The position numbers were made by a program, and so were the translations under genes. Positions 1-15,745 of a DNA stretch of 64,000 bases are shown one piece after another. Below the pieces are notes generated by a model. It was given only the letters and a program-made list of their open reading frames with translations, searched no databases and had not been told where the DNA came from. Each line of letters begins with the position of its first letter. The stretch's first letter is position 1. The stretch spans positions 10,061 to 74,060 of the forward strand of contig JASUSV010000004.1 in NCBI GenBank assembly GCA_030445865.1. The letters run 5' to 3'. The DNA comes from Clostridia bacterium. GTDB lineage: Bacteria; Bacillota; DSM-521; Neomoorellales; Neomoorellaceae.

Positions 1-1810
1 TAAGTTCCTGGAAGGCGAGGTAAACGTCCTCAGCTGTTCGACCACTTTTGAGTTGGGTGTCGACGTCGGAGAGTTGGAGGCAGTGTTTATGCGCAATATG
101 CCCCCTTCCGTGTCCAACTATATTCAGAGAGCCGGCCGTGCCGGAAGACGAGCGGACACTGTGGCTTTTGCCCTGACCTTTGCTCAGCGGCGCTCCCACG
201 ACCTCGACCATTATCGCGAACCCTGGCGGATGATTGCGGGGAAGGTGCAGGCTCCTTATTTTAAAATCGAAAACGAGAAGATCGTTCGGCGGCATGTTTA
301 CGCCACCGCCCTTTCTGCCTTTTGGCGCAGTGCGGAAGAATACCGCGAACTGTTTGGAACGGTTGGAGACTTCTTCTTCAGAGAAGGCCGCAGCGGACCG
401 GACCTATTTGCAGCGTATCTTGAGAGCCGGCCAATCTCGCTGTTGGATTCCGTCAAAAAGATTGTTCCACCCGGCTTACACGATAGTCTGGACCTTGAGG
501 GATGGGGTTGGGTGGCAGGCCTTTTCGACCCCCGGGATGGCCTTCTGCTTAAAGCGGAAGAGGAGGTTAAAAACGACGTTGAGCAATTAGAGGAGCTGAG
601 ACAAAAGTTATTTGGTGAGGGAAAGCCGGTCGATCATCTGACAAGGTTGATTAATACGTTGAAAGGCAAGTATCTTATCGACTTTCTGTCCAACCGAAAC
701 GTCATTCCCAAATATGGCTTCCCGGTCGATGTGGTGGAACTGCAACTATTGCATCACGGCGAGGAAGCGAGAAGGCTACAGCTGGAGCGGGATCTCCGCA
801 TCGCCTTGTCGGAGTACGCGCCGAGCAGCCAGGTCGTAGCTGGAGGAAGGTTGTGGACGAGCCGTTACATAAAAAGGCTGCCCAACAGGGAATGGGAGCG
901 TTTCAGATATGCTATTTGTGAGCAGTGCCAGAGCATCGTCCGGGCGCGAACGGAGTTGGTCGAAGCCAGGGGGGAGCTGGCGGAACGCTTTAGGCAATGT
1001 CCCGTTTGCGGGCAACGCTACGCAAATCAGGGAGTTTTTATTATTCCGTCCTTCGGATTTCTTACTGATATAAAAGGACCTGCGGTACCCGGGGAGGAGA
1101 GGCCAGAAAGGACCTACAGCACCCGCGCGTACTTTTCAGGTGAGGCCGACGAAGAAGACAGTATTGAGGTTTCGCTTCGCGGGGCTAGGCTGAAAGCGGT
1201 GCCGGCTTCACGCGGAAAACTGGTGGTAATTAACAACGCAGGGCATATTGGATTTAAAGTCTGCCAGCGTTGCGGGTATTCGGTTATGGGAAATGAGCGA
1301 GTACCAAATCCACATCCCATGCCGTGGGGTGCCGAATGCTCCGGTACGCTGCAGAGCCGTTTGTCTCTGGGCCACGAGTTCGAAACCGATATTCTTAAAC
1401 TTACTTTTGAGGGTTACGAGAATGCCGAGCGCGGCTTCTGGTACTCTTTGCTCTATGCTCTTCTGGAAGGTATCAGTAAAGCGCTGGATATCGAACGGCA
1501 GGATCTTGACGGCTGTCTTTATCCAGCTTCCCCTAATCCGGCCGTTCGGACGTTGGTGATCTTCGACGACGTGCCGGGTGGTGCCGGGCACGTCCGGCGG
1601 GTGGCAAATAAAGATTCCCTGGTGAAGGTCCTCCACACATCTTTGGAGCGACTGGCGCAGTGTGAGTGTGGAGGGCCTGACGGCGACGCGAGTTGCTACG
1701 GGTGCCTGCGGCATTACGGAAACCAGTTCTGCCATGAATTGCTGAAAAGAGGACCTGTCATCGCTTTTCTACGGGGTGTGCTTGCCGAAAAGTCAGCTAT
1801 TTTCCTTTAG
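1..1810 (+). CDS. DEAD/DEAH-box helicase, C-terminal portion with a DUF1998/MZB-type Cys-rich domain (5' end outside the window)
   Basis: The frame is open from base 2. Helicase motif V-like STTFELGVDVG and motif VI QRAGRAGRR are present. Downstream motifs are typical of DUF1998 helicases: NVIPKYGFPVDVVEL, ALSEYAPSSQVVAGG, and the Cys clusters CEQCQ..CPVCG, CQRCG and CECGG..CYGCL. Confidence 0.8.
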   Translation, partial: KFLEGEVNVLSCSTTFELGVDVGELEAVFMRNMPPSVSNYIQRAGRAGRRADTVAFALTFAQRRSHDLDHYREPWRMIAGKVQAPYFKIENEKIVRRHVYATALSAFWRSAEEYRELFGTVGDFFFREGRSGPDLFAAYLESRPISLLDSVKKIVPPGLHDSLDLEGWGWVAGLFDPRDGLLLKAEEEVKNDVEQLEELRQKLFGEGKPVDHLTRLINTLKGKYLIDFLSNRNVIPKYGFPVDVVELQLLHHGEEARRLQLERDLRIALSEYAPSSQVVAGGRLWTSRYIKRLPNREWERFRYAICEQCQSIVRARTELVEARGELAERFRQCPVCGQRYANQGVFIIPSFGFLTDIKGPAVPGEERPERTYSTRAYFSGEADEEDSIEVSLRGARLKAVPASRGKLVVINNAGHIGFKVCQRCGYSVMGNERVPNPHPMPWGAECSGTLQSRLSLGHEFETDILKLTFEGYENAERGFWYSLLYALLEGISKALDIERQDLDGCLYPASPNPAVRTLVIFDDVPGGAGHVRRVANKDSLVKVLHTSLERLAQCECGGPDGDASCYGCLRHYGNQFCHELLKRGPVIAFLRGVLAEKSAIFL

Positions 1811-2091
1811 GCCAAGAATTTTATCGATGGCTGTATTACACTGGGCCGTAGACGGGGAAGAAGTATAGCGAGAATATGCAGCTTAATGCTGAACTGGTAA
1901 AGGTTTGATGGGAAAGGCATCGTCCAGGAGCTAGCTGACATTCCGCGGTAGGCCCGCGGGCTGGCTTTACACAGCTCTCAGCGTCAGAGACTGGTCAACC
2001 TTTTTTTGAGCGCATGGTTCCGGTGCAGCGGCTCGCTGCAGGAATATGGAGAATAGTGAAGTCCCGGGTCTTCCTTCCTGGTAAATTTAGG

Positions 2092-2120
2092 AAAAAGGGC
2101 TCCTTACTGGAGTCCTTTTC
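2092..2120. terminator. Bidirectional intrinsic-terminator-like hairpin
   Basis: Sequence is AAAAA-GGGCTCC-TTACT-GGAGTCC-TTTT. The 7-bp stem has one G-U pair and is flanked by an A-run and a T-run. Confidence 0.4.
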
Positions 2121-2318
2121 CTGTATTAGGACAATCTGCAGCCTTCGTAAAATGTAGGGGAAGGGGAGATGACCGGTGCCAGGTAAAAACCTTAAAGTTA
2201 AGGCTTCAAGGCATTTTCCTATTAACTTGAAAGTTGTTTATTCCTCCGAAGACAGTACAGGACTGCAAGATGCGTACCGTTTATTGGCGCAGAAGCTATT
2301 GGAGGCTAGAGCGAGCAA

Positions 2319-3812
2319 GTGCAGGCAGCAATCTATATAAGGGTTAGCACTGAGGAGCAGGCCAGGCACGGTTATAGCCTGGCGGAGCAGCGTGAGGCTT
2401 GCTACCGCCGGGCTATTTCGTTAGGTGCTACGGCAATATTAGAATTTGCCGATGAAGGTGTGAGCGGGGCCACCCTGGACAGGCCAGGGTTGAACGCTTT
2501 GCGCGAGGCGGCTCGAGCGGGTCGTATAGGCGTTATAATCGTGCGCGATCCGGACCGCTTATCAAGGAGGTTGGCGCACCAGCTACTTCTCACGGAAGAA
2601 TTTGAGAAATCCGGGGTGCGGCTGGATTTCCTGGACTTCACCTGGCAGGATACCCCGGAAGGACGCATGTTTTATGCCATCAGGGGGGCCATTGCCGAGT
2701 TTGAAAAGGAAAAGATCCGGGAGCGCATGATCAGGGGGAAGACTCAGAAAGCCAGGCAAGGCGGCATTCCTATGGGTTTTTATAACTATGGCTATGCATA
2801 TGATCCGGAGACCGGCAAGGTATCAGTACTGGAAGAAGAAGCAGTAGTAGTGAAGAATATTTTCCAATGGTTTGTCCGGGAAGATATAGGGGTTAACGGT
2901 GTTGCCAAGCGGTTAAACGATCTGGGGATACCGACCCGGAAACGGCAAGGCCTATGGCATCGAGTGGTAGTAAGACAGATATTAACTAACCCGGTATACA
3001 CGGGAACGTGGAGATACAAAGATATAAATATTTCAGTTCCTCCTATAATTGAACCTGCTCTTTGGAAGAAAGCCCAGGAGAAATTGAAGGAGGCCCGGCG
3101 TTTATGGGCCGGCAGGAGCCGGTATAATTACCTTTTAAGTGGGTTGATTACTTGTGCCGATTGCGGTAACAGCATGACCGGCGCATACTCTAAATGGTGG
3201 GGGGTTAGAGAACGACGATATACTTGTAGAAAAAACAGCCAAGGTACGAGAAATTCAGGTTGCAGGCCTTCTAAGATGCTGCTGGCTGAACCCCTGGAGA
3301 ATGTGGTGTGGGAACAGGTATGTTTTTGGCTTAAGGATCCTGATAGGCTTGTTAAAGCTGCATTAGAATTTTCGCCCCAGGTGGAAGAAATAAATAAAGA
3401 GCTAAAGCACATCGAAAGACATTTGAAGGAAATTGAGAAGGGCAGGACGGCTATCCTGGATGCACTAGCTTCGGGCCTCTTAGACTTAGATGCGCAAACA
3501 AAAAATAAACTGGCTGAGTTAAAGCGACGAAAGGAAAGACTGGAGCAACGCCAGCAAGGGCTCAAGGTGGCCCTGCAGGGGGCGGAAACTATGGAACAAA
3601 GGCTTGAGGATTTACGTGTATTGGCAAAGGAGGTGTTAGCCAGGCTGGATGAGCTTGATTTCCCTTCAAAGAAGTCACTGATCAGGGCGGTGGTGGCCCA
3701 GGTGATCATCTCGGGACTTGTAAGCCCCGGGAGACATGGCCTGTCAGGGGTAAGCGTTACTGTTGTTGCCAAAATGCCTGGCCCGGAGACTGGTGTCGTT
3801 GACAATATTTGA
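2319..3812 (+). CDS. spoIVCA: Large serine recombinase (SpoIVCA-like)
   Basis: The N-terminal resolvase catalytic motif AIYIRVSTEEQ is present. It is followed by a recombinase domain, the zinc ribbon CADCGNSMTG..YTCRK and a long C-terminal coiled coil. The 497-aa size and the position abutting split sigK match SpoIVCA. The start is GTG, with GGAGG 13 nt upstream. Confidence 0.85.
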   Translation: MQAAIYIRVSTEEQARHGYSLAEQREACYRRAISLGATAILEFADEGVSGATLDRPGLNALREAARAGRIGVIIVRDPDRLSRRLAHQLLLTEEFEKSGVRLDFLDFTWQDTPEGRMFYAIRGAIAEFEKEKIRERMIRGKTQKARQGGIPMGFYNYGYAYDPETGKVSVLEEEAVVVKNIFQWFVREDIGVNGVAKRLNDLGIPTRKRQGLWHRVVVRQILTNPVYTGTWRYKDINISVPPIIEPALWKKAQEKLKEARRLWAGRSRYNYLLSGLITCADCGNSMTGAYSKWWGVRERRYTCRKNSQGTRNSGCRPSKMLLAEPLENVVWEQVCFWLKDPDRLVKAALEFSPQVEEINKELKHIERHLKEIEKGRTAILDALASGLLDLDAQTKNKLAELKRRKERLEQRQQGLKVALQGAETMEQRLEDLRVLAKEVLARLDELDFPSKKSLIRAVVAQVIISGLVSPGRHGLSGVSVTVVAKMPGPETGVVDNI

Positions 3813-4198
3813 CGCTGCACTTAGTAATTAAGATTGAGATTCTCATGCACCTGCGGGCCACCAAAAAGATGAGAAGCGAAGTATCGCTTTCCGACCCCAT
3901 CGGCGTAGACCGGGATGGCAATGAGATAACTTTGATGGATGTCTTAAGTTCCGAGCAGGATGTAGCCGAAGCAGTGGAGAATAGCTACGATCGTGAGCAG
4001 ATAATTACAAAAATTAATCTTCTTAATAAAAAAGAACGATGGGTCCTGGAAATGCGCTACGGGCTTTTCCGGGGTTTACGCCGTACCCAGCGGGAAATAG
4101 CCAGAAGGATGGGTATATCCCGCTCCTATGTTTCGCGTATCGAGAAGAAGGCCCTACAGAAATTGCTGCGAGAATTGACCGCCGAAAACTGCCGCTGA
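3809..4198 (+). CDS. sigK: 3' segment of split RNA polymerase sigma-K gene (regions 3-4 only); homology begins at about 3830
   Basis: The segment EILMHLRATKK..VSLSDPIGVDRDGNEITLMDVL..TQREIARRMGISRSYVSRIEKKAL matches my recollection of B. subtilis SigK (NEILMHLRALKK..DPIGQDKEGNEISLIDVL..GISRSYVSRIEKRAL). The first ~8 codons (MTLHLVIK) are not SigK-like, and regions 1.2-2.4 are absent. Confidence 0.85.
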   Translation: MTLHLVIKIEILMHLRATKKMRSEVSLSDPIGVDRDGNEITLMDVLSSEQDVAEAVENSYDREQIITKINLLNKKERWVLEMRYGLFRGLRRTQREIARRMGISRSYVSRIEKKALQKLLRELTAENCR

Positions 4199-4202
4199 AA
4201 AG

Positions 4203-4230
4203 TTACACTTAAGGGGAGTTATGGTATAAT
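4203..4230 (+). promoter_or_regulatory. SigA-type promoter candidate for the yqeG-aro operon
   Basis: TTACAC (4203-4208), a 16-nt spacer, then the extended -10 TGgTATAAT (4222-4230), about 45 nt upstream of the yqeG start. Confidence 0.45.
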
Positions 4231-4273
4231 TCTAGCTATAATTATGGGGAAAACCCGGCGATGAGGGTGAAAA

Positions 4274-4780
4274 ATGTTCAAATTTCTCCAACCCGATCTC
4301 TATGTAGAGTCTTTGCTCGCCATACCTTACGAAAGGTTATGGCAGCAGGGAATCCGGGGTTTTATCGTGGATCTCGATAATACGGTAACGGAATGGAACC
4401 TGGAGACTTTGCGGCCGGAGGTAAAGGAATGGTTTAATCGCGTCAGGGAAAAGGGCTTCAAAACGTGTCTGGTTTCCAATAATCGGGAAAACAGGGTGGC
4501 AAGTGTAGCCGAAATCCTGGATATCCCTTGTATTTCCAGGGCCGGCAAGCCGAGACGCAGGGCTTTTCGTCAGGCTATGGGAGTAATGGGAACCCGCAGA
4601 GAGGAAACCGCGGTTGTGGGCGACCAGTTGTTTACCGACATTCTGGGGGGTAACCGCCTGGGCCTTTATACCGTTCTGGTGGTTCCGCTGACGCGAAGGG
4701 AGTTCATCGGTACGCAACTGGTACGCAAGATCGAGCGCCTGGTTTTGAGGACCCTTTCTTTGGACAGGCCTCAACATTAG
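4274..4780 (+). CDS. yqeG: YqeG-family HAD-IIIA phosphatase
   Basis: HAD motif I IVDLDNTV is present, the size is 168 aa, and the gene precedes aroE as in Bacillus. Confidence 0.8.
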   Translation: MFKFLQPDLYVESLLAIPYERLWQQGIRGFIVDLDNTVTEWNLETLRPEVKEWFNRVREKGFKTCLVSNNRENRVASVAEILDIPCISRAGKPRRRAFRQAMGVMGTRREETAVVGDQLFTDILGGNRLGLYTVLVVPLTRREFIGTQLVRKIERLVLRTLSLDRPQH

Positions 4781-4806
4781 CCCGCACCGGAAAGTGAGGG
4801 AAATAC

Positions 4807-5664
4807 TTGGACGCCCGAACGAAACTAACCGGTATTATCGGCTACCCTGTTGAACATTCCTTTTCTCCGGCCATGCACAATGCCGCCTTTGTCGCCTGCG
4901 GACTGAACTGGGTTTACCTGGCCTTCGCGGTCAGGAAGGAGTTACTGGCCGACGCCCTGGCCGGAGTTCGCGGCCTCGGCCTGGTCGGGATCAACGTAAC
5001 CGTACCCCACAAAGAGGAAGTCCTGCCCCTGTTGGACGAACTCGACCCTTTGGCTGCTCGAATCGGCGCCGTGAACACCGTGGTCAACGAAGGCGGGCGT
5101 CTTAAGGGATATAACACCGATGCCTACGGCTTCCTCACTTCCTTGCGCGAAGAAGGCTTCGATCCGGCAGGTAAAAAGGCGGTGATCCTGGGAGCAGGCG
5201 GGGCGGCGCGGGCGGTGGCTTTTGGCCTGGCAGGCGCAGGGCTGGGAGCGCTCGTTATAGCCAACCGCAGCCCGGAGAGGGCAAGGGAATTGGCGGCAGC
5301 TTTAAAGAAAAATATTCCCGCCCTCCAGGTTGAATGGGCGAGGCTGAGGCCCGAAGAGGTGGCCCCGGCCCTCCGGGAGGCCGACCTTCTGGTGCAGACG
5401 ACTAGCGTGGGCATGTACCCCAAAATCGATGTCTCTCCCTTGGAAGATTATTCCTGTCTGCGGCCGGGACTCTGGGTATACGATCTAGTGTATAACCCCA
5501 GGCAGACGAAATTTTTAAAGGCGGCCAGGGCGGCCGGCTGCCGTACGCTGGACGGTCTGGGTATGCTGGTTCATCAGGGGGCGGCTGCTTTCCGACTCTG
5601 GACAGGCCTGCAACCGCCGTTGGAAGTAATGCGGCAGGCCGTAGTTGAACGGCTGGGAGCTTGA
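4807..5664 (+). CDS. aroE: Shikimate dehydrogenase
   Basis: GIIGYPVEHSFSPAMHNAAF and the NVTVPHK motif are present, plus the NAD(P) fold GAGGAARAV. Confidence 0.92.
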   Translation: MDARTKLTGIIGYPVEHSFSPAMHNAAFVACGLNWVYLAFAVRKELLADALAGVRGLGLVGINVTVPHKEEVLPLLDELDPLAARIGAVNTVVNEGGRLKGYNTDAYGFLTSLREEGFDPAGKKAVILGAGGAARAVAFGLAGAGLGALVIANRSPERARELAAALKKNIPALQVEWARLRPEEVAPALREADLLVQTTSVGMYPKIDVSPLEDYSCLRPGLWVYDLVYNPRQTKFLKAARAAGCRTLDGLGMLVHQGAAAFRLWTGLQPPLEVMRQAVVERLGA

Positions 5665-5706
5665 GGTAAAAGGAAGCATCTGTTTTAGACAAGGGGGAAA
5701 ATCGTA

Positions 5707-6864
5707 TTGCTCCGCTATTTGACGGCCGGTGAATCCCACGGCCGCGGTTTGACGATAATCGTAGAGGGTCTGCCTGCCGGCGTTCCTCTTACCGCCTCCT
5801 ACCTTGAAGGCTGGCTCAGGCGGCGGCAGGGGGGGTACGGTCGAGGTGGCCGCATGCAAATAGAGCAGGATCGGGCCGAAATCCTGGCCGGGGTGCGGTC
5901 CGGTATAACCCTCGGTAGCCCGGTAGCCTTGTTTGTCCCTAACCGGGACTGGCAGAACTGGCAGCAGGTTATGACGCCGGAACCGGGGGCCGTGGAGTCC
6001 CGGGCGGTTACCAGGCCGCGGCCGGGCCATGCCGACCTTCCGGGCGGCCAGAAGTACCGCCAGAAAGACCTGCGTAACATCCTGGAGCGGGCGAGCGCCA
6101 GGGAGACGGCGGCGCGGGTGGCCGCGGGCGCGGTGGCCGCCGCCTTTTTGGAGGAGTTGGGGGTGGAGGTCGTCGGCCACGTGGTGGCCATCGGGCCGGT
6201 TCGGGTTGAGCGGGAGTTAACCTGGGAAGAGATCAGGTCTGCCCGCAATTCTCCCGTTTACTGCGCCGACCCGACCGCCAGTCAGGCGATGATGGACGCC
6301 ATCGATGCAGCCCGGGCCGGGGGGGATACTCTGGGAGGGGTTTTTGAAGTCTTGGTCGCCGGCTTACCTCCCGGCCTGGGCAGTCACGTGCACTGGGACA
6401 GGCGCCTGGACGGGAAACTGGCCCAGGCCTTGATGAGCATTCAGGCCGTTAAAGCCGTAGAGATCGGCGACGGCTTTGAGGTGGCGGCCAGGCCCGGTTC
6501 GGCCGCCCAAGACGAGATTTTCTATCATCCGGAGCGCGGGTTTTATCGCGGCACCAACCGTGCCGGCGGGTTGGAAGGCGGCATCACCAACGGTGAAGTA
6601 TTGAAGGTAAGGGCGGCGATGAAACCCATACCCACTTTGGGCCGGCCCCTCCGCAGCGTGGATATATACAGGAAAGAGGAAGTAGGAGCTGCGGTGGAGA
6701 GGTCGGACGTATGCGCGGTCCCGGCGGCGGCAGTAGTCGGTGAGGCGGCCGTGGCCTGGGTGCTGGCCGGGGCCTTTTTAGAAAAGTTCGGCGGCGACCA
6801 TCTGGAGGAGATCAAGGAGCGCTTGCAGGCCTACCGCGCCTACCTGCGGCGCTGGCCGGAGTAA
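5707..6864 (+). CDS. aroC: Chorismate synthase
   Basis: The N-terminus [14 protein letters not shown] and the segment RPGHAD are present; the length is 385 aa. Confidence 0.93.
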
Positions 6865-6933
6865 ACCTTCCCATAAATGAAGCCGCCGCTCCGGCAAGGA
6901 GTACCGTTTCGGAAGTATAGGAGAGGGGTTAAT

Positions 6934-7467
6934 GTGGATAATTTCAGGGGCAAAAGCATCATTCTCATCGGCTTTATGGGCACCGGCAAAACCATCGTTG
7001 GGAGGTTGCTGGCGGAAAGGCTGGGGAGGGAATTCATTGACACCGACGAGCTGGTGGAAGAAGCCATGGGCTTGTCCATACCTTTAATCTTTCGGCGCTA
7101 CGGCGAGAGCCGTTTCCGCGCTGAAGAAAAAGCTGCCGTAGCCCGGGCAACTGCCCGGCAGGGGGCGGTAATTGCTACCGGAGGAGGAGCCGTTTTAGAC
7201 CCGGAAAACGTTGCCCGCCTTAAGGAAGCGGGGGTAATTATCTGGCTTCAGGCTACGCCGGAAGCCATCTTTGAGCGTACCGGGCGGGGAGAAGGTCGCC
7301 CCCTGCTGGAAGGCCGCCATTCCGTTGAAGTTATTGCCGGCCTGTTGGAGAGAAGGATGCCTTATTATCAACAGGCTGCCGACTTAATTATAAATACCAC
7401 CGGCCGGCCGCCGGAAGAAATAGCCAGGCAAATAGAGCAGGAGTTGAATTTATGGTCGCCGAATTGA
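6934..7467 (+). CDS. aroK: Shikimate kinase
   Basis: The P-loop GFMGTGKT and DTDELVEE are present. The ORF is open from 6877, but a GTG at 6934 preceded by AGGAGAGGGG is the more likely start. Confidence 0.85.
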   Translation: MDNFRGKSIILIGFMGTGKTIVGRLLAERLGREFIDTDELVEEAMGLSIPLIFRRYGESRFRAEEKAAVARATARQGAVIATGGGAVLDPENVARLKEAGVIIWLQATPEAIFERTGRGEGRPLLEGRHSVEVIAGLLERRMPYYQQAADLIINTTGRPPEEIARQIEQELNLWSPN

Positions 7468-8525
7468 CGGTTAACCTGGGCCAGCGCAGTTACCGCATTA
7501 TCTGCGGCCCGGGCCTCTTGGAGCAAGCGGGTGTTTTGCTCGCGGAACTAAAGCTTTCGCGCCGCTGCTTGATAGTTACCAACCCGGTAGTCGGCCCGCT
7601 TTACGCGCCCCGGGTTGAAGAAAGCTTGGCAGGGGCCGGGTTTAACCCTAAAGTGGTTACCGTGCCGGAAGGGGAAGAAGCCAAGACCCTGGCTGTTGCC
7701 GCCAGGTTATACGACGCCGCTTTAGAAGCGGGGCTAGACCGCGGCTCGGCCGTAATCGCCCTCGGAGGCGGTGTGGTGGGTGACGTGGCCGGATTTGTGG
7801 CCGCCACCCTCTTGCGCGGCGTGCCTTTTATCCAACTGCCTACCACCCTTCTGGCTCAGGTGGATGCCAGCGTTGGAGGCAAAGTGGCCGTCAACCATCC
7901 CCTGGGCAAGAACCTGATCGGCGCTTTTTATCAACCCCGGCTTGTAGCGGCCGATCTCGCAACTTTGCGAACCCTGCCGCCGCGGGAGGTGCGGGCAGGG
8001 CTGGCCGAGGTAATTAAATACGGCGTCATTGCCGAAGCCGATTTTTTTGCTTACCTGGAGAATAACCTGGAGGCCGCCTTGAACCTTGATCCGGCGGTGC
8101 TGACGGAAATAGTTTACCGCTCCTGCCGGATTAAAGCCCGGGTGGTAGAGGCCGATGAGCGTGAAAGCGGCCTGCGGGCCATCTTAAACTTCGGCCACAC
8201 CGTAGGGCACGCCCTGGAGGCTTTAACAGGCTTTAAAGAGCTTCACCACGGCGAGGGTGTGGCCATTGGCATGGTAGCGGCCAGCCGCCTGGCCCAGCGG
8301 CGCGGGTGGCTCCAGGCGGGTGAGGTAGGGCGGCTGATCGATCTGTTAAAGCGGGCAGGGTTGCCGGTAGAAATGCCCTCCCTGGATCGCGGGGCCTTGC
8401 TGACGGCTATAGGCCGGGACAAAAAGATAAAAGACGGTACCCTGCACATGGTTCTGCCCAGAAGCATAGGAAAGGTTGAGGTTGTGCCGGTAGGCCTGAA
8501 GGAATTGGAAGCCGTACTTGCCTAG
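7452..8525 (+). CDS. aroB: 3-dehydroquinate synthase
   Basis: GGGVVGDVAGFVAAT..PFIQLPTTLLAQVDASVGGKVAVN is present, together with the His-rich metal site FGHTVGHALE. Confidence 0.93.
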   Translation: MVAELTVNLGQRSYRIICGPGLLEQAGVLLAELKLSRRCLIVTNPVVGPLYAPRVEESLAGAGFNPKVVTVPEGEEAKTLAVAARLYDAALEAGLDRGSAVIALGGGVVGDVAGFVAATLLRGVPFIQLPTTLLAQVDASVGGKVAVNHPLGKNLIGAFYQPRLVAADLATLRTLPPREVRAGLAEVIKYGVIAEADFFAYLENNLEAALNLDPAVLTEIVYRSCRIKARVVEADERESGLRAILNFGHTVGHALEALTGFKELHHGEGVAIGMVAASRLAQRRGWLQAGEVGRLIDLLKRAGLPVEMPSLDRGALLTAIGRDKKIKDGTLHMVLPRSIGKVEVVPVGLKELEAVLA

Positions 8526-8720
8526 GGAAGTGGTGCATTACCTGGAGGCTCTGCTGGAGAGGATGTGCGGACGCAGTCGGGACGGCTTTTGTCTGCGTTC
8601 TGGGGGCACGTCGGGCGGCTCAAGGAAGTAGCGGCCTAACTGATTTTCGGCTGCGGCCTGCGGACAGAACTTATGCCCGTAGCCAGGCGGGCGGCACCAA
8701 TAGCGGGGAGGTCAAGGAAA

Positions 8721-9524
8721 ATGCTGTTGAGCTCCCGGGAGAAGACTATCCTCCTGGTGGAAGATTCGACTTTAACAAGGTTTTCTTCCAGGAGGGTCCT
8801 GGAGGACAGGGGTTATATCGTGGAAGAAGCCTCCGGCGGCGAAGAAGCGCTGGCCAAAGCGAGGCAGAGGGAAGAGCCTTACGACCTGGTAATCATCGAC
8901 ATCTACCTGCCGGGACTGGACGGGCTGGCCCTGCTGGAAAAGCTGAAAGCCACTCCTGAATACCGCTACGTCCCGGTCATGATGTTTACCTCCGAAACAC
9001 GCATGCCGGTGGTAAAGCGGGCTATAGAGCTCGGGGCCGTAGAATACCTCTGCAAACCCTTTACCGCCGAGCAGCTGGTGCACAGGGTAGAAAAACTCAT
9101 AGGCCCCGGGGTCGGGAAAGGGGAGACGCCCATAGCGCTCCTTCACAGGGTGCTGAAGAACGAAGTCAACAGGGCCGTCAGGGGCAACCTCAAGCTTGCG
9201 CTGGTGCTGGCCAGGCGCGAAGGCCTGGAGAAGGGGAAGATAGAAGAACACGGCAGGCGCGTCCAGCACCGGTTGCGCGGTATTGACACTGTGATAGTGC
9301 TGAGCAGCAGCACCCTGGCTGCCGTCCTGCCCCTTACGGGGGCGGAAGGCGCGCAAGTGGTGGCAAAAAAGATGTCTGCCTGGCTGCCGGGTGAATGGAG
9401 CTTCGGAGTTGCGGTCTACCCGGACAACGGGAAGGACGGAGAAGAACTGTTCAACTACGCCGAGAGTTCCCTTAAAGAGAGTTGGAAAAAAGATGGGGAC
9501 AAGGCCCCACCCCAGGACGGCTGA
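8721..9524 (+). CDS. Response regulator: REC domain plus degenerate GGDEF domain (SSSTL replaces GGDEF; RxxD I-site retained)
   Basis: The REC domain shows LLVEDS..DLVIIDIYLPGLDG..K. The C-terminal part aligns to a GGDEF domain: RGID-TVIVL-SSSTLAAVLPLT against the RxxD-x5-GGDEFavlLP pattern. The ATG at 8721 follows GGGGAGG. Confidence 0.8.
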   Translation: MLLSSREKTILLVEDSTLTRFSSRRVLEDRGYIVEEASGGEEALAKARQREEPYDLVIIDIYLPGLDGLALLEKLKATPEYRYVPVMMFTSETRMPVVKRAIELGAVEYLCKPFTAEQLVHRVEKLIGPGVGKGETPIALLHRVLKNEVNRAVRGNLKLALVLARREGLEKGKIEEHGRRVQHRLRGIDTVIVLSSSTLAAVLPLTGAEGAQVVAKKMSAWLPGEWSFGVAVYPDNGKDGEELFNYAESSLKESWKKDGDKAPPQDG

Positions 9525-9610
9525 GTCCCCGCCTTGAGCGCACAGGCGGCGGCTCCACTCGCCGGTGGGCGCCCTGGTGCGGGACAAGGTTTTGCGGCGG
9601 CGCAGAGGCG

Positions 9611-9644
9611 GCGCGGGGTAGCTTAAAGCCCCGCGTATCTTTTG
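9611..9644 (+). terminator. Intrinsic terminator after the response regulator gene
   Basis: CGCGGGG (9612-9618) pairs with CCCCGCG (9629-9635). The stem is followed by TATCTTTT. Confidence 0.55.
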
Positions 9645-9753
9645 GGGCGCGAAGAACAGGTACCTGCGGCCTGCCAGGGGCTCCCCGCGCAGGACAGGGA
9701 CGCCCGGGTCCTGGGGACCAAAGCCGTGCGCCAGTTCAAAGGGGCGATATTAA

Positions 9754-10632
9754 ATGTCTTTAAAGACCAAGACAGTTCTCACTATATCCACCGTTTTTGC
9801 TTTTCTTGCCCTTGCTTTTTTCGCGGTTTCTCATGTGGTCGCAAATAACATTGCAGCAGAGCTGGAAAGGGATGATATTCACCAGAATATTGAGCGGGCC
9901 CTGCAGGCTCTGGAAAGGGAAATCGTGACGCTGGATAAATTTGCCGAAGATTGGGCCGCATGGGACGACACGTATATATTTGTGGAAGACAGAAACGAGG
10001 AATACATAGAAAAGAACCTGGTCGACAGCACGTTTGAAGTTTTGAGGCTTAATTATGCGGTGTTCATAAACACCAGGGGAGAGATTGTCTACGCCAGAGG
10101 ATATGATCCGGAAGCGGGCGAAGAAATTGCCGTACCTCCAGGCATTGTTGAATATATTTTCAAAAAAGACCCTTTTTCGGTTCAACACGAGGCAGGCGGC
10201 GGCCTTAAAGGGCTGGTAGTAATGCCAGAAGGGCCTGTACTGGTTGCCGCAAGGCCCGTTTTAAAAAGCGACGACAGCGGGCCCGCCCGGGGGACCTTAA
10301 TCTTCGGCCGAATCCTTAGGGACAAGGATTTAAAGGAACTCTCTGAGATCACCCGCCTGCCCCTCTCTTTTCACACGCCGGGAGCCGTAGACTTCCGTGA
10401 CCTGACACCTGCAGGCTTTTTGGAAAACGGGGAGGCGTACTACACCGGGGTTATTTCCCCGCAGGAGAGTGCCGGTTTTGCCGTCATTAAAGACCTTCGG
10501 GGTGAAACCGCCTTAATCCTTCAAGTTAATGCCGAGAGGCGCACTGCCAGAGCGTTCCAGGCTGCAAGAAAGGCCTTCGGCATCTTTCTAGTGCTGGCGG
10601 GGGCCCTGTTCTGCGCACTGGCAGCATTTTGA
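9754..10632 (+). CDS. CHASE4 periplasmic sensor segment with two TM helices; ends at an in-frame TGA and is the N-terminal part of an interrupted gene
   Basis: An N-terminal TM helix, the CHASE4-like DWAAWDDTYIFV region and a second TM helix (GIFLVLAGALFCALAAF) are present. The TGA at 10630-10632 falls exactly where a HAMP domain should begin. Confidence 0.75.
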   Translation: MSLKTKTVLTISTVFAFLALAFFAVSHVVANNIAAELERDDIHQNIERALQALEREIVTLDKFAEDWAAWDDTYIFVEDRNEEYIEKNLVDSTFEVLRLNYAVFINTRGEIVYARGYDPEAGEEIAVPPGIVEYIFKKDPFSVQHEAGGGLKGLVVMPEGPVLVAARPVLKSDDSGPARGTLIFGRILRDKDLKELSEITRLPLSFHTPGAVDFRDLTPAGFLENGEAYYTGVISPQESAGFAVIKDLRGETALILQVNAERRTARAFQAARKAFGIFLVLAGALFCALAAF

Positions 10633-12570
10633 CTGGACAGAATTGTCATATCCCGACTGATAAAGCTGACCGGTGATGTAACAAACACAGGCAATAATTC
10701 CGCCTTTCTCCAAAGGGTTCAAGTTCTGGAGGGAAAGGATGAGCTTGCCCTTCTGTCCGTTGAAATCAACAAAATGTTGGACAGGCTGGAGGAGTACCGG
10801 CAAGAGATACATGAGAGGGAAAAGAAATATAGAGAGGTGGTGGAAAACGCCGCTGAAGCCATTGTTGTGGTCCAGGACGGTGTGGTCAAATTCGTCAACC
10901 GGGCGGCAGCGAAACATACGGGATACGCAGAAGAGGAGCTTATTTCAAACCCTCTTGCCAACTTCATCCACCCGGAAGACAGGAATGCGGTAACGGAACA
11001 TTGCAGGGAGTTGCTTGAAGGCAAGCGTGTCTTATACGCATTTCCGTTCAGGATAATAGCCAGAAACGGGAGTGTCAGGTGGGCGGAAACAAACTCCGTG
11101 GTGTGCGAATGGGAGGGGCGGCCCGCCACTTTAAATTTTCTCACCGATATTACCGCTCGCAAGTTGCTGGAAGAAGAGCTGCAGAGGTTGATGGCAGAAA
11201 AATCGCTAATTCTTGACAGCCTTGCGGAGCTGGTTGTATTTCTGGACCGCGATATGCACATTATCTGGGCCAACCGTGCGGCTGGCGAATCCGTTGGCGC
11301 CAGTCCCGAAGCCCTCTGGGGAGGGAAATGCCACGAAATATGGCACGGGAGGAGTTCTCCCTGCGAGGGCTGTCCGGTCGTCCGGGCCATGGAGACCGGC
11401 CAGGTATGCGCGGGTGAGATGGCCTCCCCGGACGGCCGCTTCTGGCATATAACGGCCTCTCCCGTCAGGGATAAAAACGGAAACGTTGTGGGCGCGGTTG
11501 AAGCAACTCTGGATATCACCGAGCGCAGGCGATACGAGGAACAGCTGAAATACTTAAGCCTGCACGACCTGCTGACGGGCCTTTACAACCGGGCCTTTTT
11601 CCAGGAGGAGCTCAGGCGCTTGTCCTCCAGCCGGGAATACCCGATAACAATACTGGTGGCGGACCTGGACGGCCTGAAACTGGTTAACGACACCCTGGGC
11701 CATGCCAAAGGCGATGAGATGTTAAAGGCCTGCGCGGATGTTTTGAGAACCTCCCTCCGCCGCTCTGATATCCTTGCCCGCATAGGAGGCGACGAATTTG
11801 CCGCCCTTTTGCCCAGAACAGGTGAAAAAACTGGGGAAGATATTGGGTGCCGGATACGCTCCCGTATCTATGGCTACAACAAAGAACACCCCGAGCTGCC
11901 CCTGCACCTGTCCATAGGCTTTGCCACGTGCCAAAGCGAGGATGAATCTCTCGAAGATACCTTTAAGCAGGCCGACGACCTCATGTACCGCCACAAGCTT
12001 GTGCACAGGGCCAGCGCGCGGAACCAGATTGTCGGCGCCCTGCTGGCAGCCTTGAAAGAAAAAGATTACATCACTGCGGGGCATGCTCAGCGGCTGGAGG
12101 AATTGTGCTTAAAAATGGGGGAAAAGATAGGTCTTTCTCCCCGGCAGATGGCCGACCTGGCCCTGCTGGCGCAGGTCCATGACCTGGGCAAAGTTGCCGT
12201 ACCGGACAGCATCTTGTTCAAGAAAGGCCCGCTTACAGAGGAAGAATGGGAGGTCATGCGCCGGCACCCCGAAAAGGGCTACCGCATCGCCCTTTCCTCA
12301 CCCGACCTTGCCGGGGTGGCAGATTTAATTCTCAAGCATCATGAAAGATGGGACGGCAGCGGCTATCCCCTGGGGCTAAAGGGCGAAGAGATACCTGTAG
12401 AATGCCGCATCCTGTCCATTGTCGATGCCTTTGACGCTATGACCAGCGAGCGGCCCTACAGGAAGCCCAAAAGTAAAGAAGGGGCGATCATAGAGCTTAA
12501 AAGGTGTGCGGGAAGCCAGTTTGACCCGCAACTGGTTGATATCTTTGTTTCCATGTTTTCGGCGGCATGA
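10633..12570 (+). CDS. HAMP-PAS-PAS-GGDEF-HD-GYP c-di-GMP turnover protein (C-terminal part of the interrupted gene; first Met at 10774)
   Basis: It is in the same frame as 9754..10632, with no other stop between them. The HAMP-like segment LDRIVISRLIKLTGDV..DELALLSVEINKMLDRLEE is followed by two PAS domains. The GGDEF motif is intact (RIGGDEFAALLP), as is the HD-GYP domain (VHDLGK..HHERWDGSGYP). Confidence 0.8.
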   Translation: MDRIVISRLIKLTGDVTNTGNNSAFLQRVQVLEGKDELALLSVEINKMLDRLEEYRQEIHEREKKYREVVENAAEAIVVVQDGVVKFVNRAAAKHTGYAEEELISNPLANFIHPEDRNAVTEHCRELLEGKRVLYAFPFRIIARNGSVRWAETNSVVCEWEGRPATLNFLTDITARKLLEEELQRLMAEKSLILDSLAELVVFLDRDMHIIWANRAAGESVGASPEALWGGKCHEIWHGRSSPCEGCPVVRAMETGQVCAGEMASPDGRFWHITASPVRDKNGNVVGAVEATLDITERRRYEEQLKYLSLHDLLTGLYNRAFFQEELRRLSSSREYPITILVADLDGLKLVNDTLGHAKGDEMLKACADVLRTSLRRSDILARIGGDEFAALLPRTGEKTGEDIGCRIRSRIYGYNKEHPELPLHLSIGFATCQSEDESLEDTFKQADDLMYRHKLVHRASARNQIVGALLAALKEKDYITAGHAQRLEELCLKMGEKIGLSPRQMADLALLAQVHDLGKVAVPDSILFKKGPLTEEEWEVMRRHPEKGYRIALSSPDLAGVADLILKHHERWDGSGYPLGLKGEEIPVECRILSIVDAFDAMTSERPYRKPKSKEGAIIELKRCAGSQFDPQLVDIFVSMFSAA

Positions 12571-12796: not shown

Positions 12797-14536
12797 GTGT
12801 TAGAAGTGGCAGCGCAACGGCGGCGGCTGGGCGATCTCCTTGTCGAGACCGGCCTGCTAACTCCGTCCCAGCTCGAGCGGGCGCTTCAGGAGCAGAAAAG
12901 GACCGGCGAGAGGCTGGGTAAAATTTTAGTTCGCCTGGGATTTTTAAGCGAGAGAGACATCCTGGAGGCCCTGGAATTTCAGCTGGGAATTCCCAAGGTG
13001 AACCTGGAAGACTACCGCCTGGACCCGGAAGTAGTGGGCTTAATACCGGAAGAGCTGGCCCGGCGGCATATGGCCGTTCCTGTAAAGAAAGACGGTAATC
13101 GGCTTTTAGTGGCTATGGCCGATCCCCTTAACCTTCTGGCCATCGATGACCTGCGCCTGGCCACCCGCATGGAAATCCTGCCGGCCATAGCCACCGAAAA
13201 GGAGATCCAGGCAGCCCTCTCCATTTACCAGCAGAACCGGGCCAAGCAGGCAAAATGGGCCCAACTGGCAGATCTGGCCGAAACGGCCGCCGGCCTCGCC
13301 GCCGAAGCCGCGGCCGGGGCGCCTTCGCGGGAGATATTTAATTTGGACGGGGCAGGCGCCGCCAGCTCAGACGGCGCGCCTGTAGTGCGGCTGGTAAATA
13401 ACCTTATCGCCCAGGCCGTGCAGGTTAAGGCCAGCGATATCCACTTGGAGCCCCAGGGCGAAAGGATCCGCGTTCGCTTCCGGGTTGATGGACTGCTGCG
13501 CGAGGTGGCCCAGCTTCCCTTAAGCGCTTTGAGCAGCCTCGTCTCCCGCATCAAGATCATGGGCGGTATGGATATTGCCGAAAAAAGGCTGCCTCAAGAC
13601 GGCCGCTTCCAGGTGACGCTGGAAGGCCGTAACATCGACCTGCGCGTTTCTACCCTGCCGGCCGTTTACGGCGAGAAGGTGGTTTTACGCATCCTCGATA
13701 AGGAGGCCATGATGATCCCTTTGGAAGGCCTAGGCTTTTTGCCTTCCCTCCGCGAGCGCTATGAGGCCTTAATCCGGAGCACTTACGGCATGATCCTTAT
13801 TACCGGGCCTACCGGTAGCGGCAAGACGACGACCCTTTACGCCACCCTCAAGGCTTTAAACACCCCGGAAAAGAATATCGTTACTATCGAGGACCCGGTA
13901 GAATACCTGCTGGAAGGCATAAATCAGGTGCGGGTTAACCCTAAAGCAGGGTTGGATTTCGCTTCCGGCCTGCGCTCCATTTTGCGCCAGGACCCGGACA
14001 TTATCATGGTCGGTGAAATCCGCGACCGGGAGACGGCCGACATTGCCGTCCGCGCCGCCACTACCGGCCATCTCGTTTTAAGTACCCTGCATACCAATGA
14101 TGCCGCCGGTGCGGTGACCAGGCTGGTTGATATGGGAGTGGAGCCCTTTCTAGTAAATTCATCTTTAATTGGGGTCGTGGCCCAGCGGCTGGTGCGGCTG
14201 ATTTGCCCCCACTGTAAGGAAGAGTATCTGCCTGCCCCCGGGACGCCGGAATACGCTTATTTGCAGGGCGAGGGCGAAATTACCTCCCTGTATCGCGGTC
14301 GCGGCTGCCCGGCCTGCAACTACACGGGTTATCGGGGGCGGACGGCCATCCAGGAGGTGCTGGTTATGACCGAGAGACTTCGCTCCCTCGTCTCTGCCAA
14401 AGAGCCTTCAGTAATCATTCGTAAGGCGGCTATAGAAGAGGGCATGATTCCCCTGCACCGCGACGGGTTATATAAAGCCAGGCAGGGTTTGACCACGGTG
14501 AGCGAAGTAATGCGCGTTGCCCTGGGCGGTTTTTAA
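12797..14536 (+). CDS. pilB: Type IV pilus assembly ATPase PilB/GspE with N-terminal MshEN domain
   Basis: Walker A GPTGSGKTT, a tetracysteine site (CPHC..CPAC) and two N-terminal RLGxxLVxxG(L/F)Lxxxx(L/I)xxxLxxQ motifs are present. Confidence 0.92.
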   Translation: MLEVAAQRRRLGDLLVETGLLTPSQLERALQEQKRTGERLGKILVRLGFLSERDILEALEFQLGIPKVNLEDYRLDPEVVGLIPEELARRHMAVPVKKDGNRLLVAMADPLNLLAIDDLRLATRMEILPAIATEKEIQAALSIYQQNRAKQAKWAQLADLAETAAGLAAEAAAGAPSREIFNLDGAGAASSDGAPVVRLVNNLIAQAVQVKASDIHLEPQGERIRVRFRVDGLLREVAQLPLSALSSLVSRIKIMGGMDIAEKRLPQDGRFQVTLEGRNIDLRVSTLPAVYGEKVVLRILDKEAMMIPLEGLGFLPSLRERYEALIRSTYGMILITGPTGSGKTTTLYATLKALNTPEKNIVTIEDPVEYLLEGINQVRVNPKAGLDFASGLRSILRQDPDIIMVGEIRDRETADIAVRAATTGHLVLSTLHTNDAAGAVTRLVDMGVEPFLVNSSLIGVVAQRLVRLICPHCKEEYLPAPGTPEYAYLQGEGEITSLYRGRGCPACNYTGYRGRTAIQEVLVMTERLRSLVSAKEPSVIIRKAAIEEGMIPLHRDGLYKARQGLTTVSEVMRVALGGF

Positions 14537-14551
14537 AAAGGTGGAACGGCA

Positions 14552-15559
14552 ATGGACATACGAGATATACTTCAAGCGGCAGCAGCAAAAGGGGCTTCTG
14601 ACGTTCACCTTACTGTGGGTTTGCCGCCGGTTTTTCGTTACCTGGGAGAGTTGCTGCCCCAGGAGAACTGGCCGCCTCTGCAGACGGCAGTAACCGAAGA
14701 ACTGGCCAGGCAGTTGCTCGGGGAAAGATGGCCGGAATTTGCCACGCAGGGCGAACTGGATTTCGCTTACTCTCTTTCCGGAATTGGGCGTTTCCGGGTA
14801 AATGTTTTCCGCCAGCGGGGGAGCGTTGCTGCGGCCATCCGCCTGATCCCTGCGAGGGTACCCAGTTTAGAGGAACTGGGCCTGCCCCCGGTGGTAGGGG
14901 AGCTGGCCGACCAGCCCCACGGCCTGGTCCTGGTTACCGGGCCTACCGGTAGCGGTAAGACCACTACGCTGGCGGCCATGATCGATCGGATTAATCATCA
15001 GCGCAGCTGTCATATAATTACTCTGGAGGACCCCATAGAGTACCTGCACCAGCACAAAAAGAGCATGGTCAACCAGCGGGAGATAGGGAGCGATTCTCCT
15101 TCCTTTGCGAGCGCTTTGAGGGCTGCCCTGCGCCAGGACCCTGACGTTATTCTGGTGGGCGAGATGCGGGACCTGGAGACGGTGGCCACGGCCATTACGG
15201 CTGCCGAAACCGGGCACCTCGTGTTGACTACCCTGCATACCAGCAGCGCCGTCCAGAGCGTTGACCGCATTATTGACGTCTTCCCTCCGCACCAGCAGGG
15301 CCAGATAAGGATCCAGTTAGCTGATACTCTGGCCGGAGTTATTACTCAACAATTATTACCCCGCGCCGATGGTAAAGGCCGGGTGGCGGCGGTTGAAGTT
15401 CTCATTGCTACTCCAGCTGTACGCAATCTTATAAGGGAAGGTAAAACCCACCAGATTGTTTCTGCCATGCAGACGGGCGGCCGTTTCGGAATGCAGACCA
15501 TGGAGATGTCGCTAAAGCAATTGTCTGCTAGGGGAATAATTGACCTGGATCATGGTTAA
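14552..15559 (+). CDS. pilT: Twitching-motility (retraction) ATPase PilT
   Basis: The length is 335 aa. GPTGSGKTTT, the Asp box and the segment TLHTSSA are present, as in the PilT family. Confidence 0.9.
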   Translation: MDIRDILQAAAAKGASDVHLTVGLPPVFRYLGELLPQENWPPLQTAVTEELARQLLGERWPEFATQGELDFAYSLSGIGRFRVNVFRQRGSVAAAIRLIPARVPSLEELGLPPVVGELADQPHGLVLVTGPTGSGKTTTLAAMIDRINHQRSCHIITLEDPIEYLHQHKKSMVNQREIGSDSPSFASALRAALRQDPDVILVGEMRDLETVATAITAAETGHLVLTTLHTSSAVQSVDRIIDVFPPHQQGQIRIQLADTLAGVITQQLLPRADGKGRVAAVEVLIATPAVRNLIREGKTHQIVSAMQTGGRFGMQTMEMSLKQLSARGIIDLDHG

Positions 15560-15745
15560 ACAAGAAGGAATTTGGCTAATTTTGGCGAATTAAATGGTAT
15601 CCCTGTTAAGGGCAAACCTGGCGAAAGCCGGGGGCGCAAAGCTACGGGCCTAAGGGTGAAAATGCCTATGGCCGCCGGGCTGCCGGGGGAACTGGTTCTT
15701 CCGCAGCGGCTCGGCGCGTCTTTTTTCTGGCGGTGTAGTGTAGAT

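Follow-up and report, generated by a model that had tools for sequence, protein, structure and literature searches.

The window analysed here is a stretch of 64,000 nucleotides (nt) from the metagenome-assembled genome (MAG) of a Clostridia bacterium. Near its left end, a gene for a large serine recombinase is directly followed by the 3' part of sigK, the gene of sigma-K, and the DNA to the left of this junction has the features of a skin-like element, that is, an element which interrupts sigK. The boundary between element and chromosome is placed at a GA dinucleotide. The features around it are as follows (coordinates in the window, strand, identity; aa, amino acids):

1..1810, + strand: last ~600 codons of a gene for a 1,636-aa DruE-family (Druantia-type) DEAD/DEAH helicase, with Helicase_C and MZB domains
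2088..2123, + strand: terminator-like hairpin (AAAAAGGGCTCC…GGAGTCCTTTT), left edge of the recombination cassette
2124..2175, + strand: promoter-like non-coding block, with TAGGACAAT at 2127-2135, the -10-like CGTAAAAT at 2146-2153 and the Shine-Dalgarno sequence GGGGAG at 2163-2168
2176..2340, + strand: conserved 54-aa open reading frame (ORF), whose last 22 nt overlap the start of the recombinase gene; candidate recombination directionality factor (RDF)
2319..3812, + strand: gene of a large serine recombinase (497 aa; Resolvase, Recombinase and Zn_ribbon_recom domains) whose architecture and position are SpoIVCA-like
3814..3859, no strand: attR, consisting of the P (element) arm at 3814-3835 (GCTGCACTTAGTAATTAAGATT), GA at 3836-3837 and the B' (sigK) arm at 3838-3859
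3836..4198, + strand: 3' part of sigK, encoding regions 3-4, from codon Glu115 (GAG, 3836-3838) to the stop codon

The annotated ORF 3809..4198 encodes 129 aa. The sequence-only reading, made from the letters of the window, had taken it to be SigK-like in its C-terminal half only, and the profile matches agree: TIGR02846 is matched over positions 109-226 of 227 (161.2 bits) and NF004471 over positions 111-231 of 235, and the only Pfam match is Sigma70_r4. The initial codons had been described as about eight in number and unrelated to SigK. They are unrelated, and their number is nine (MTLHLVIKI). They are read through the recombinase stop codon and the terminal inverted-repeat arm, and the TTG at 3809 was annotated as the start in error. 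In a tblastn comparison of full-length SigK (P0009) with the whole 64-kb window, only residues 111-220 were matched, at 3824-4153. SigK regions 1.2-2.4 are therefore absent from the entire window, which extends the absence first noted for the 3.8 kb preceding the fragment. The junction DNA is 100% identical in three independent Logan assemblies (SRR23823869, SRR23823870 and SRR23823871) and in the NCBI MAG 'Clostridia bacterium', so that an assembly artefact is not its source.

The missing 5' half, which the sequence-only reading had proposed to look for in the rest of the genome, is present in the same MAG. When residues 1-114 of a closely related full-length SigK were compared with the protein collection, the best 120 matches all (120/120) contained region 2 only and were 95-197 aa long. 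One of them, P0257 (MDN5347184.1), is a 5' sigK half of 117 aa with the C-terminal end …ARCIEN-EI*, i.e. …ATYAARCIENEI*. Its accession lies within 340 numbers of MDN5346847.1 (recombinase) and MDN5346848.1 (3' half), and because the numbers are neighbouring, the three proteins belong to one MAG submission. P0257 is encoded in SRR23823870 and SRR23823871 (contigs L003 and L004), and the same samples hold the window junction (L001 and L002).

P0257 alone matches TIGR02846 over profile positions 8-113 with 177.6 bits. Joined in frame, this half and the half in the window give 708 nt encoding 235 aa, which read …CIENEILMHLR… across the joint. The joined SigK is matched in one stretch by each model, with 349.7 bits for TIGR02846 and 364.6 bits for NF004471, and passes both cut-offs (298.65 and 252 bits, respectively); neither half alone reaches that of TIGR02846. 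The rebuilt protein retains an N-terminal leader ending …LLLSYITNNAFPQPLS. Since this leader resembles what we take to be the pro-sequence of B. subtilis, proteolytic activation is probably retained.

Alignment of the two junctions narrows the crossover, which had been predicted to lie between 3812 and about 3836, to the GA dinucleotide at 3836-3837, 24 nt after the recombinase stop codon. In the window, attR reads …GCTGCACTTAGTAATTAAGATT-GA-GATTCTCATGCACCTGCGG…, and attL, found on L003 with its GA at 4512-4513, reads …GCCCGCTGTATTGAAAAT-GA-AATCTGAATTACAAAGGGTAGC…. The trinucleotide TGA is common to both. The insertion point is after codon Asn114 of sigK, …CIEN|EILMHL…. Serine integrases act at a central dinucleotide that is not a palindrome and has imperfect inverted repeats on either side. 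Inverted symmetry about GA amounts to 18/24 in the rebuilt attP and to 10/24 in the rebuilt attB; the latter differs little from the sigK of Neomoorella humiferrea, which is uninterrupted (…CGCTGCATTGAAAATGAGATCCTTATGCACCTGCG…). The predicted joint sequences are CGCTGTATTGAAAATGAGATTCTCATGCACCTG for attB and CTTAGTAATTAAGATTGAAATCTGAATTACAAAG for attP. GA is also central in two related elements (L005 and L011).

The recombinase had been recognized as a 497-aa large serine recombinase that ends at 3812 and overlaps the sigK fragment. Three Pfam domains are found in it, PF00239 Resolvase at 3-149, PF07508 Recombinase at 172-258 and PF13408 Zn_ribbon_recom at 272-334, and the overlap with the annotated fragment is 4 nt. 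The catalytic Ser10 lies within RVSTEEQ / MQAAIYIRVSTEEQ. Its relatives in the PDB are SprA/YokA, the A118 integrase and the TP901-1 integrase. The best NCBIfam match is XisF, below cut-off, in a collection that has no SpoIVCA model. The protein is 85% identical to P0123 of Thermanaeromonas toyohensis and 77% identical to P0125 of Moorella thermoacetica Y72, and the ratio of non-synonymous to synonymous substitution rates (dN/dS) against the T. toyohensis locus (L006) is 0.105. Homologues number 625 at E <= 1e-20, with 50-86% identity, and their hosts include Thermanaeromonas, Moorella, Pelotomaculum, Desulforamulus, Desulfurispora and many MAGs. In 7 cases a homologue lies on a contig equal in length to that of a 3' sigK half, and in 7 on one equal in length to that of a 5' half.

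The recombinase is part of a conserved cassette of 1.75 kb (2092-3837), comprised of the hairpin, the promoter-like block, the 54-aa ORF, the recombinase gene and the P arm. Homology of the window to the T. toyohensis locus and to a JGI contig (L005) begins abruptly at 2092-2093 and runs to the crossover; upstream of 2092 there is no similarity to either. At the other end of the element, only the 23 nt after GA are common with T. toyohensis, at 100% identity. The cassette is thus sharply bounded and common to the relatives, and the cargo is unrelated.

The hairpin at the left edge (-21.4 kcal/mol, z = -5.95) folds better than any of 200 shuffled sequences and is kept in both relatives with a pair-preserving change. 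It was folded separately, as a generic scan for sigma-70 promoters and terminators did not report it. The block that follows is near-invariant in the window, L006 and L005, whole loci being only 70-84% identical. TAGGACAAT is invariant across the three and occurs once in the window. Two distant homologues, L008 and L013, are likewise preceded by a TAGGACAA…C(A/G)TA arrangement, and the integrase of Bacillus phage PK1 by TAGACAAG…CATACC. The block fits what we take to be the SpoIIID consensus (WWRRACAR-Y) followed by a mother-cell -10 of the CATA type (sigma-E/K).

The 54-aa ORF has orthologues in L006 (78% aa identity) and L005 (60%), with dN/dS values of 0.13-0.28. Its VxVVY…AYRLLA motif recurs upstream of distant recombinases and of the integrases of phages PK1 and MMB025; it has no Pfam or PADLOC match. 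A positional analogue of Skr of B. subtilis, it is a candidate directionality factor.

Logan contig L001 starts at window position 2098, almost at the homology boundary of the cassette, and the assembly graph may therefore branch at this edge. Such a branch would suggest that strain variants with different cargo exist in that sample.

The sequence-only reading had the window start inside the element, and DNA from further left bears this out. The 20,369-nt contig L106, from SRR23823869 and of the same strain, is identical to window 1-11240 and reaches 4,294 nt further left through cargo genes. The start of the helicase gene is 3.1 kb outside the window, on the left. Its window part contains the Helicase_C and MrfA Zn-binding (MZB) domains of Pfam and matches PADLOC DruE1 at 3e-90; the full 1,636-aa protein from L106 scores 640.7 bits. 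The gene upstream of it encodes 1,476 aa with no Pfam match on record, the last 398 aa having no PADLOC match. In layout the two genes resemble a two-gene Druantia anti-phage system, to which they may belong. At the left end of the element, attL is followed by a 48-aa ORF and then by an MNT/HEPN pair. The contig contains 12,964 nt left of the crossover and no 5' sigK half; the element is therefore at least ~13 kb long. The G+C content is 0.52-0.53 in the element versus 0.565-0.575 in the flanking chromosome. No phage gene was found in the visible DNA of the element, i.e. 1.15 kb of the left end, ~8.1 kb of the sequenced right end and gene calls on a further 4.8 kb. The helicase, its 1,476-aa partner and the MNT/HEPN pair suggest a defence island, not a prophage.

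These findings indicate that window 1-3837 is very probably the right end of a sigK-intervening, skin-like element of at least ~13 kb. That excision takes place during sporulation is suggested by analogy with the models for excision in B. subtilis and C. difficile (PMC6957869, PMC5025042, PMC4191935). The cassette's own promoter, lying behind the insulating hairpin, would be switched on in the mother cell, and the recombinase, with the 54-aa protein acting as the directionality factor, would recombine attL with attR at GA. The element would leave as a circle and the restored sigK would encode pro-sigma-K. The forespore would retain the interrupted copy, and it is through this copy that the element would be inherited.

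Several points weigh against this interpretation. No excised joint was found in the protein collection, the JGI metagenomes or IMG/VR. The exact rebuilt SigK, in two start variants, is absent from the protein collection, and the exact attP 30-mer is absent from the JGI metagenomes and IMG/VR; both are weak negatives. The two sigK halves lie on separate MAG contigs, the 5' half on one of 55,038 nt and the window on one of 102,940 nt, so that their linkage and orientation and the exact size of the element in this genome had to be deduced. The putative promoter was assigned by the likeness of its SpoIIID box and CATA-type -10 to consensus sequences. The suggested directionality role of the 54-aa ORF is drawn from position and conservation. 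The likeness of the recombinase to SpoIVCA is, similarly, one of architecture and position.

An active temperate phage, or a self-transmissible element, might also use sigK as its attB and be excised on induction, for example by the SOS response, rather than or besides during development. Among the phage integrases closest to the recombinase (37-41% identity) are that of Bacillus phage PK1 (37%), a real phage whose attP holds AATGAAATC centred on GA, and that of Alicyclobacillus phage MMB025 (41%), a reported relative of a prophage integrated in sigK (PMC13141910). In Clostridium perfringens, sigK is the integration site of phage PhiS63 (PMC3442830). The visible part of the element amounts to only ~13 kb. 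The visible genes, however, are the MNT/HEPN pair, the gene of the 1,476-aa protein, DruE and the recombination cassette, none of them a phage gene; the relatives carry signalling genes, insertion sequence (IS) elements or nothing; and attP was not found in IMG/VR. A phage or self-transmissible element is therefore unlikely.

If the insertion were a fossil that has lost excision, sigK would be permanently inactive, as in an asporogenous lineage, or the system would be decaying. The failure to find an excised joint would agree with this, as would the state of the T. toyohensis element. The recombinase of T. toyohensis is altered after residue 491 by an IS, running into an rve-type transposase fragment (L006 11473-12100; L007 1861-2563), and the 10 kb downstream of it contain no 3' sigK half, which indicates that sigK elements can be damaged. 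In the present genome, by contrast, neither sigK half is interrupted by a stop codon or frameshift and the two join in frame; purifying selection acts on the recombinase and the 54-aa ORF, both of which are of full length, and attP retains its symmetry. A fossil is accordingly quite improbable. A third reading takes the 3' fragment for a dead partial duplicate beside an unrelated recombinase, with an intact sigK elsewhere; a dead duplicate and an intact copy had been named at the outset as what would overturn the skin-like interpretation. An intact copy may be missing from an incomplete MAG. In a collection of 15 billion proteins that includes this MAG and the three samples, however, no SigK other than the fragment itself exceeds 72% identity to it, the matching 5' half is broken off at precisely the codon that complements the 3' half, and the junctions show symmetry of the recombinase type, so that a duplicate is already largely refuted and most improbable.

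The interpretation as a skin-like element agrees with what has been published on sigK elements. A survey of skin elements of 2.6-48 kb in 15 Firmicutes species gives as their only common part a SpoIVCA-like recombinase at the edge, usually directly upstream of spoIIIC (10.1101/2022.02.25.481979). The edge rule holds for the present element, which therefore belongs to the already known skin class. The predicted skin-like layout, in which the recombinase directly precedes the 3' half, likewise matches the survey and recurs in four relatives (L005, L008, L011 and L012). The elements compared here range from 2.8 kb (L011) to >13 kb.

Like the skin element of B. subtilis, the element has a large serine recombinase at its edge, a small ORF upstream that overlaps the recombinase gene and imperfect inverted repeats around a short core. 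In B. subtilis the small ORF is Skr, a 64-aa ORF directly upstream of, and overlapping, spoIVCA (PMC6957869); the overlap is 101 nt there and 22 nt here. Transcription of spoIVCA requires sigma-E and SpoIIID (PMC517825). The B. subtilis core is AATGA (PMC10745906), which attL of the present element contains, whereas only TGA is common to both junctions here. Further differences are that the recombinase gene adjoins the 3' half and is co-oriented with sigK, while in B. subtilis it adjoins the 5' half and runs in the opposite direction (PMC10745906), that the visible cargo is of the defence type and not prophage-like, and that the host belongs to the uncultured Clostridia. With the skin element of C. 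difficile, skin(Cd), the element shares a large serine recombinase (CD1231) with a catalytic Ser10. The skin(Cd) recombinase works with a small acidic RDF, CD1234, which confines excision to the mother cell (PMC5025042). Unlike the arrangement seen here, the RDF gene does not adjoin the recombinase gene in C. difficile, sigma-K has no pro-sequence and the site in sigK is near nt 427 (PMC3442830). Island IV of B. cereus biovar anthracis is likewise a non-prophage insertion in sigK with defence cargo, in this case restriction-modification of type I, and is excised during sporulation (PMC10745906). It differs in insertion site, repeat structure and kind of defence, and its recombinase adjoins the 5' half.

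The closest relative is the element of T. toyohensis ToBE (LT838272.1; L006), with 85% aa identity in the recombinase and 84-86% nt identity in the cassette. The two have in common the 54-aa ORF, the promoter block, the MNT/HEPN pair and the identical 23 nt after GA in attL. The remaining T. toyohensis cargo is different and includes AgrB, IS110, a histidine kinase and a group II intron reverse transcriptase. This element may be disrupted or much larger. A 159-aa 3' sigK half of T. toyohensis (P0004) exists in nr.

Recombinase scans of the genome and metagenome collections, in which the peptide patterns were too specific, gave mostly distant relatives, of which L008, L010, L011 and L012 were informative. 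Both sigK halves lie co-oriented on one contig in L005, where the 7.4-kb element carries enzymes of cyclic di-GMP (c-di-GMP) metabolism and a transposase, and in L011, where the 2.8-kb element carries the recombinase only. In L010 the layout is as in B. subtilis, with the recombinase gene adjoining the 5' half on the opposite strand. Of the best 120 matches to the 3' fragment in the window, 80 are without region 2, and split sigK looks very common in uncultured Firmicutes. In N. humiferrea (Moorella/Neomoorella), the N-terminus of P0009 is matched at 100% identity by the 5' halves P0241/P0242 (116-139 aa), whereas sigK is uninterrupted in a further genome of the species, CP136419.1. Strains therefore differ in whether they carry the element.

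The 5' halves in public data break at no fewer than two recurrent positions, …CIEN|E… and …DKEGNE|I… (P0331, P0323 and P0314 compared with P0257, P0310, P0332 and others). For PhiS63, skin(Cd) and also skin(Ct), the insertion lies near nt 427 of sigK, …EGN|EI…, and for skin(Bs) in a different region (PMC3442830). The …DKEGNE|I… class matches the nt-427 site, and the CIEN|E break is probably at the same site as the B. subtilis skin element, judging from that paper (PMC3442830) and from what we take to be the B. subtilis sequence. Both classes of break lie at an Asn-Glu-Ile motif (AAT GAR AT), and different integrase lineages may use the same microsequence at two places in sigK.

What is new here is modest: a GA crossover resolved together with both arms in this clade of Clostridia, a portable cassette with sharp boundaries, its defence-type cargo, and a conserved Skr-like ORF family that reaches phages of Bacillus and Alicyclobacillus. 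A more general and tentative proposal, to which we give somewhat less than even chances, is that the cassette (2092-3837) together with the 23-nt P' arm is a portable unit which moves unrelated cargo into sigK across the Clostridia, the cargo here being the Druantia-like pair and MNT/HEPN, and that the 54-aa ORF represents a widespread, unnamed family of directionality factors. If this were so, the spore line would inherit the defence island and the mother cell would discard it once sigma-K is required. The sigK-targeting phage integrases of Bacillus and Alicyclobacillus would then share the 54-aa ORF family with a sister clade that apparently splits ligD. The cassette with its candidate directionality factor is a possible integrase/RDF pair for genome engineering. 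For annotation, two 'sigma-70 family' fragments and a 'site-specific recombinase' in MAGs of this kind are to be seen as one developmental switch and not as pseudogenes. The understanding of sporulation control is unchanged by this element.

A 516-aa paralogue of the recombinase (47% identity) is encoded at L027 6001-8146 (JGI Ga0224486_100015) and L014 10001-12146 (Moorella mulderi DSM 14980), with a small upstream ORF of the 54-aa ORF family. In the ORF directly after it, the match to Pfam LigD_Prim-Pol begins only at position 87 of the 254 in the profile, as if this were the 3' part of a ligD primase-polymerase gene that has been split. The locus would then be another gene-intervening element; a 5' part was not found within 10 kb upstream.

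On the chromosomal side of the junction, a sigma-70-like promoter lies at 4202-4230 (+ strand), between the sigK stop codon and a yqeG-like HAD phosphatase gene (4274-4780). It consists of GTTACA, a 17-nt spacer and TG-TATAAT (10/12 matches). The yqeG-like gene leads a run of aroE-aroC-aroK-aroB. Conserved synteny with relatives that have an uninterrupted sigK was considered and rejected: it fails in N. humiferrea, and the yqeG-aro cluster of L023, though close by, has the inverted orientation. Further to the right, the window contains a type IV pilus cluster, preceded by CHASE4 and PAS-GGDEF-HD genes (9754-12570). The PilB-like ATPase of the cluster (12797-14536) carries an MshEN domain. Between the gene of a PilT-like ATPase (14552-15559) and that of a PilC-like T2SSF protein there is a c-di-GMP-I riboswitch at 15601-15687 (+ strand), which scores 84 bits against a gathering score of 35.

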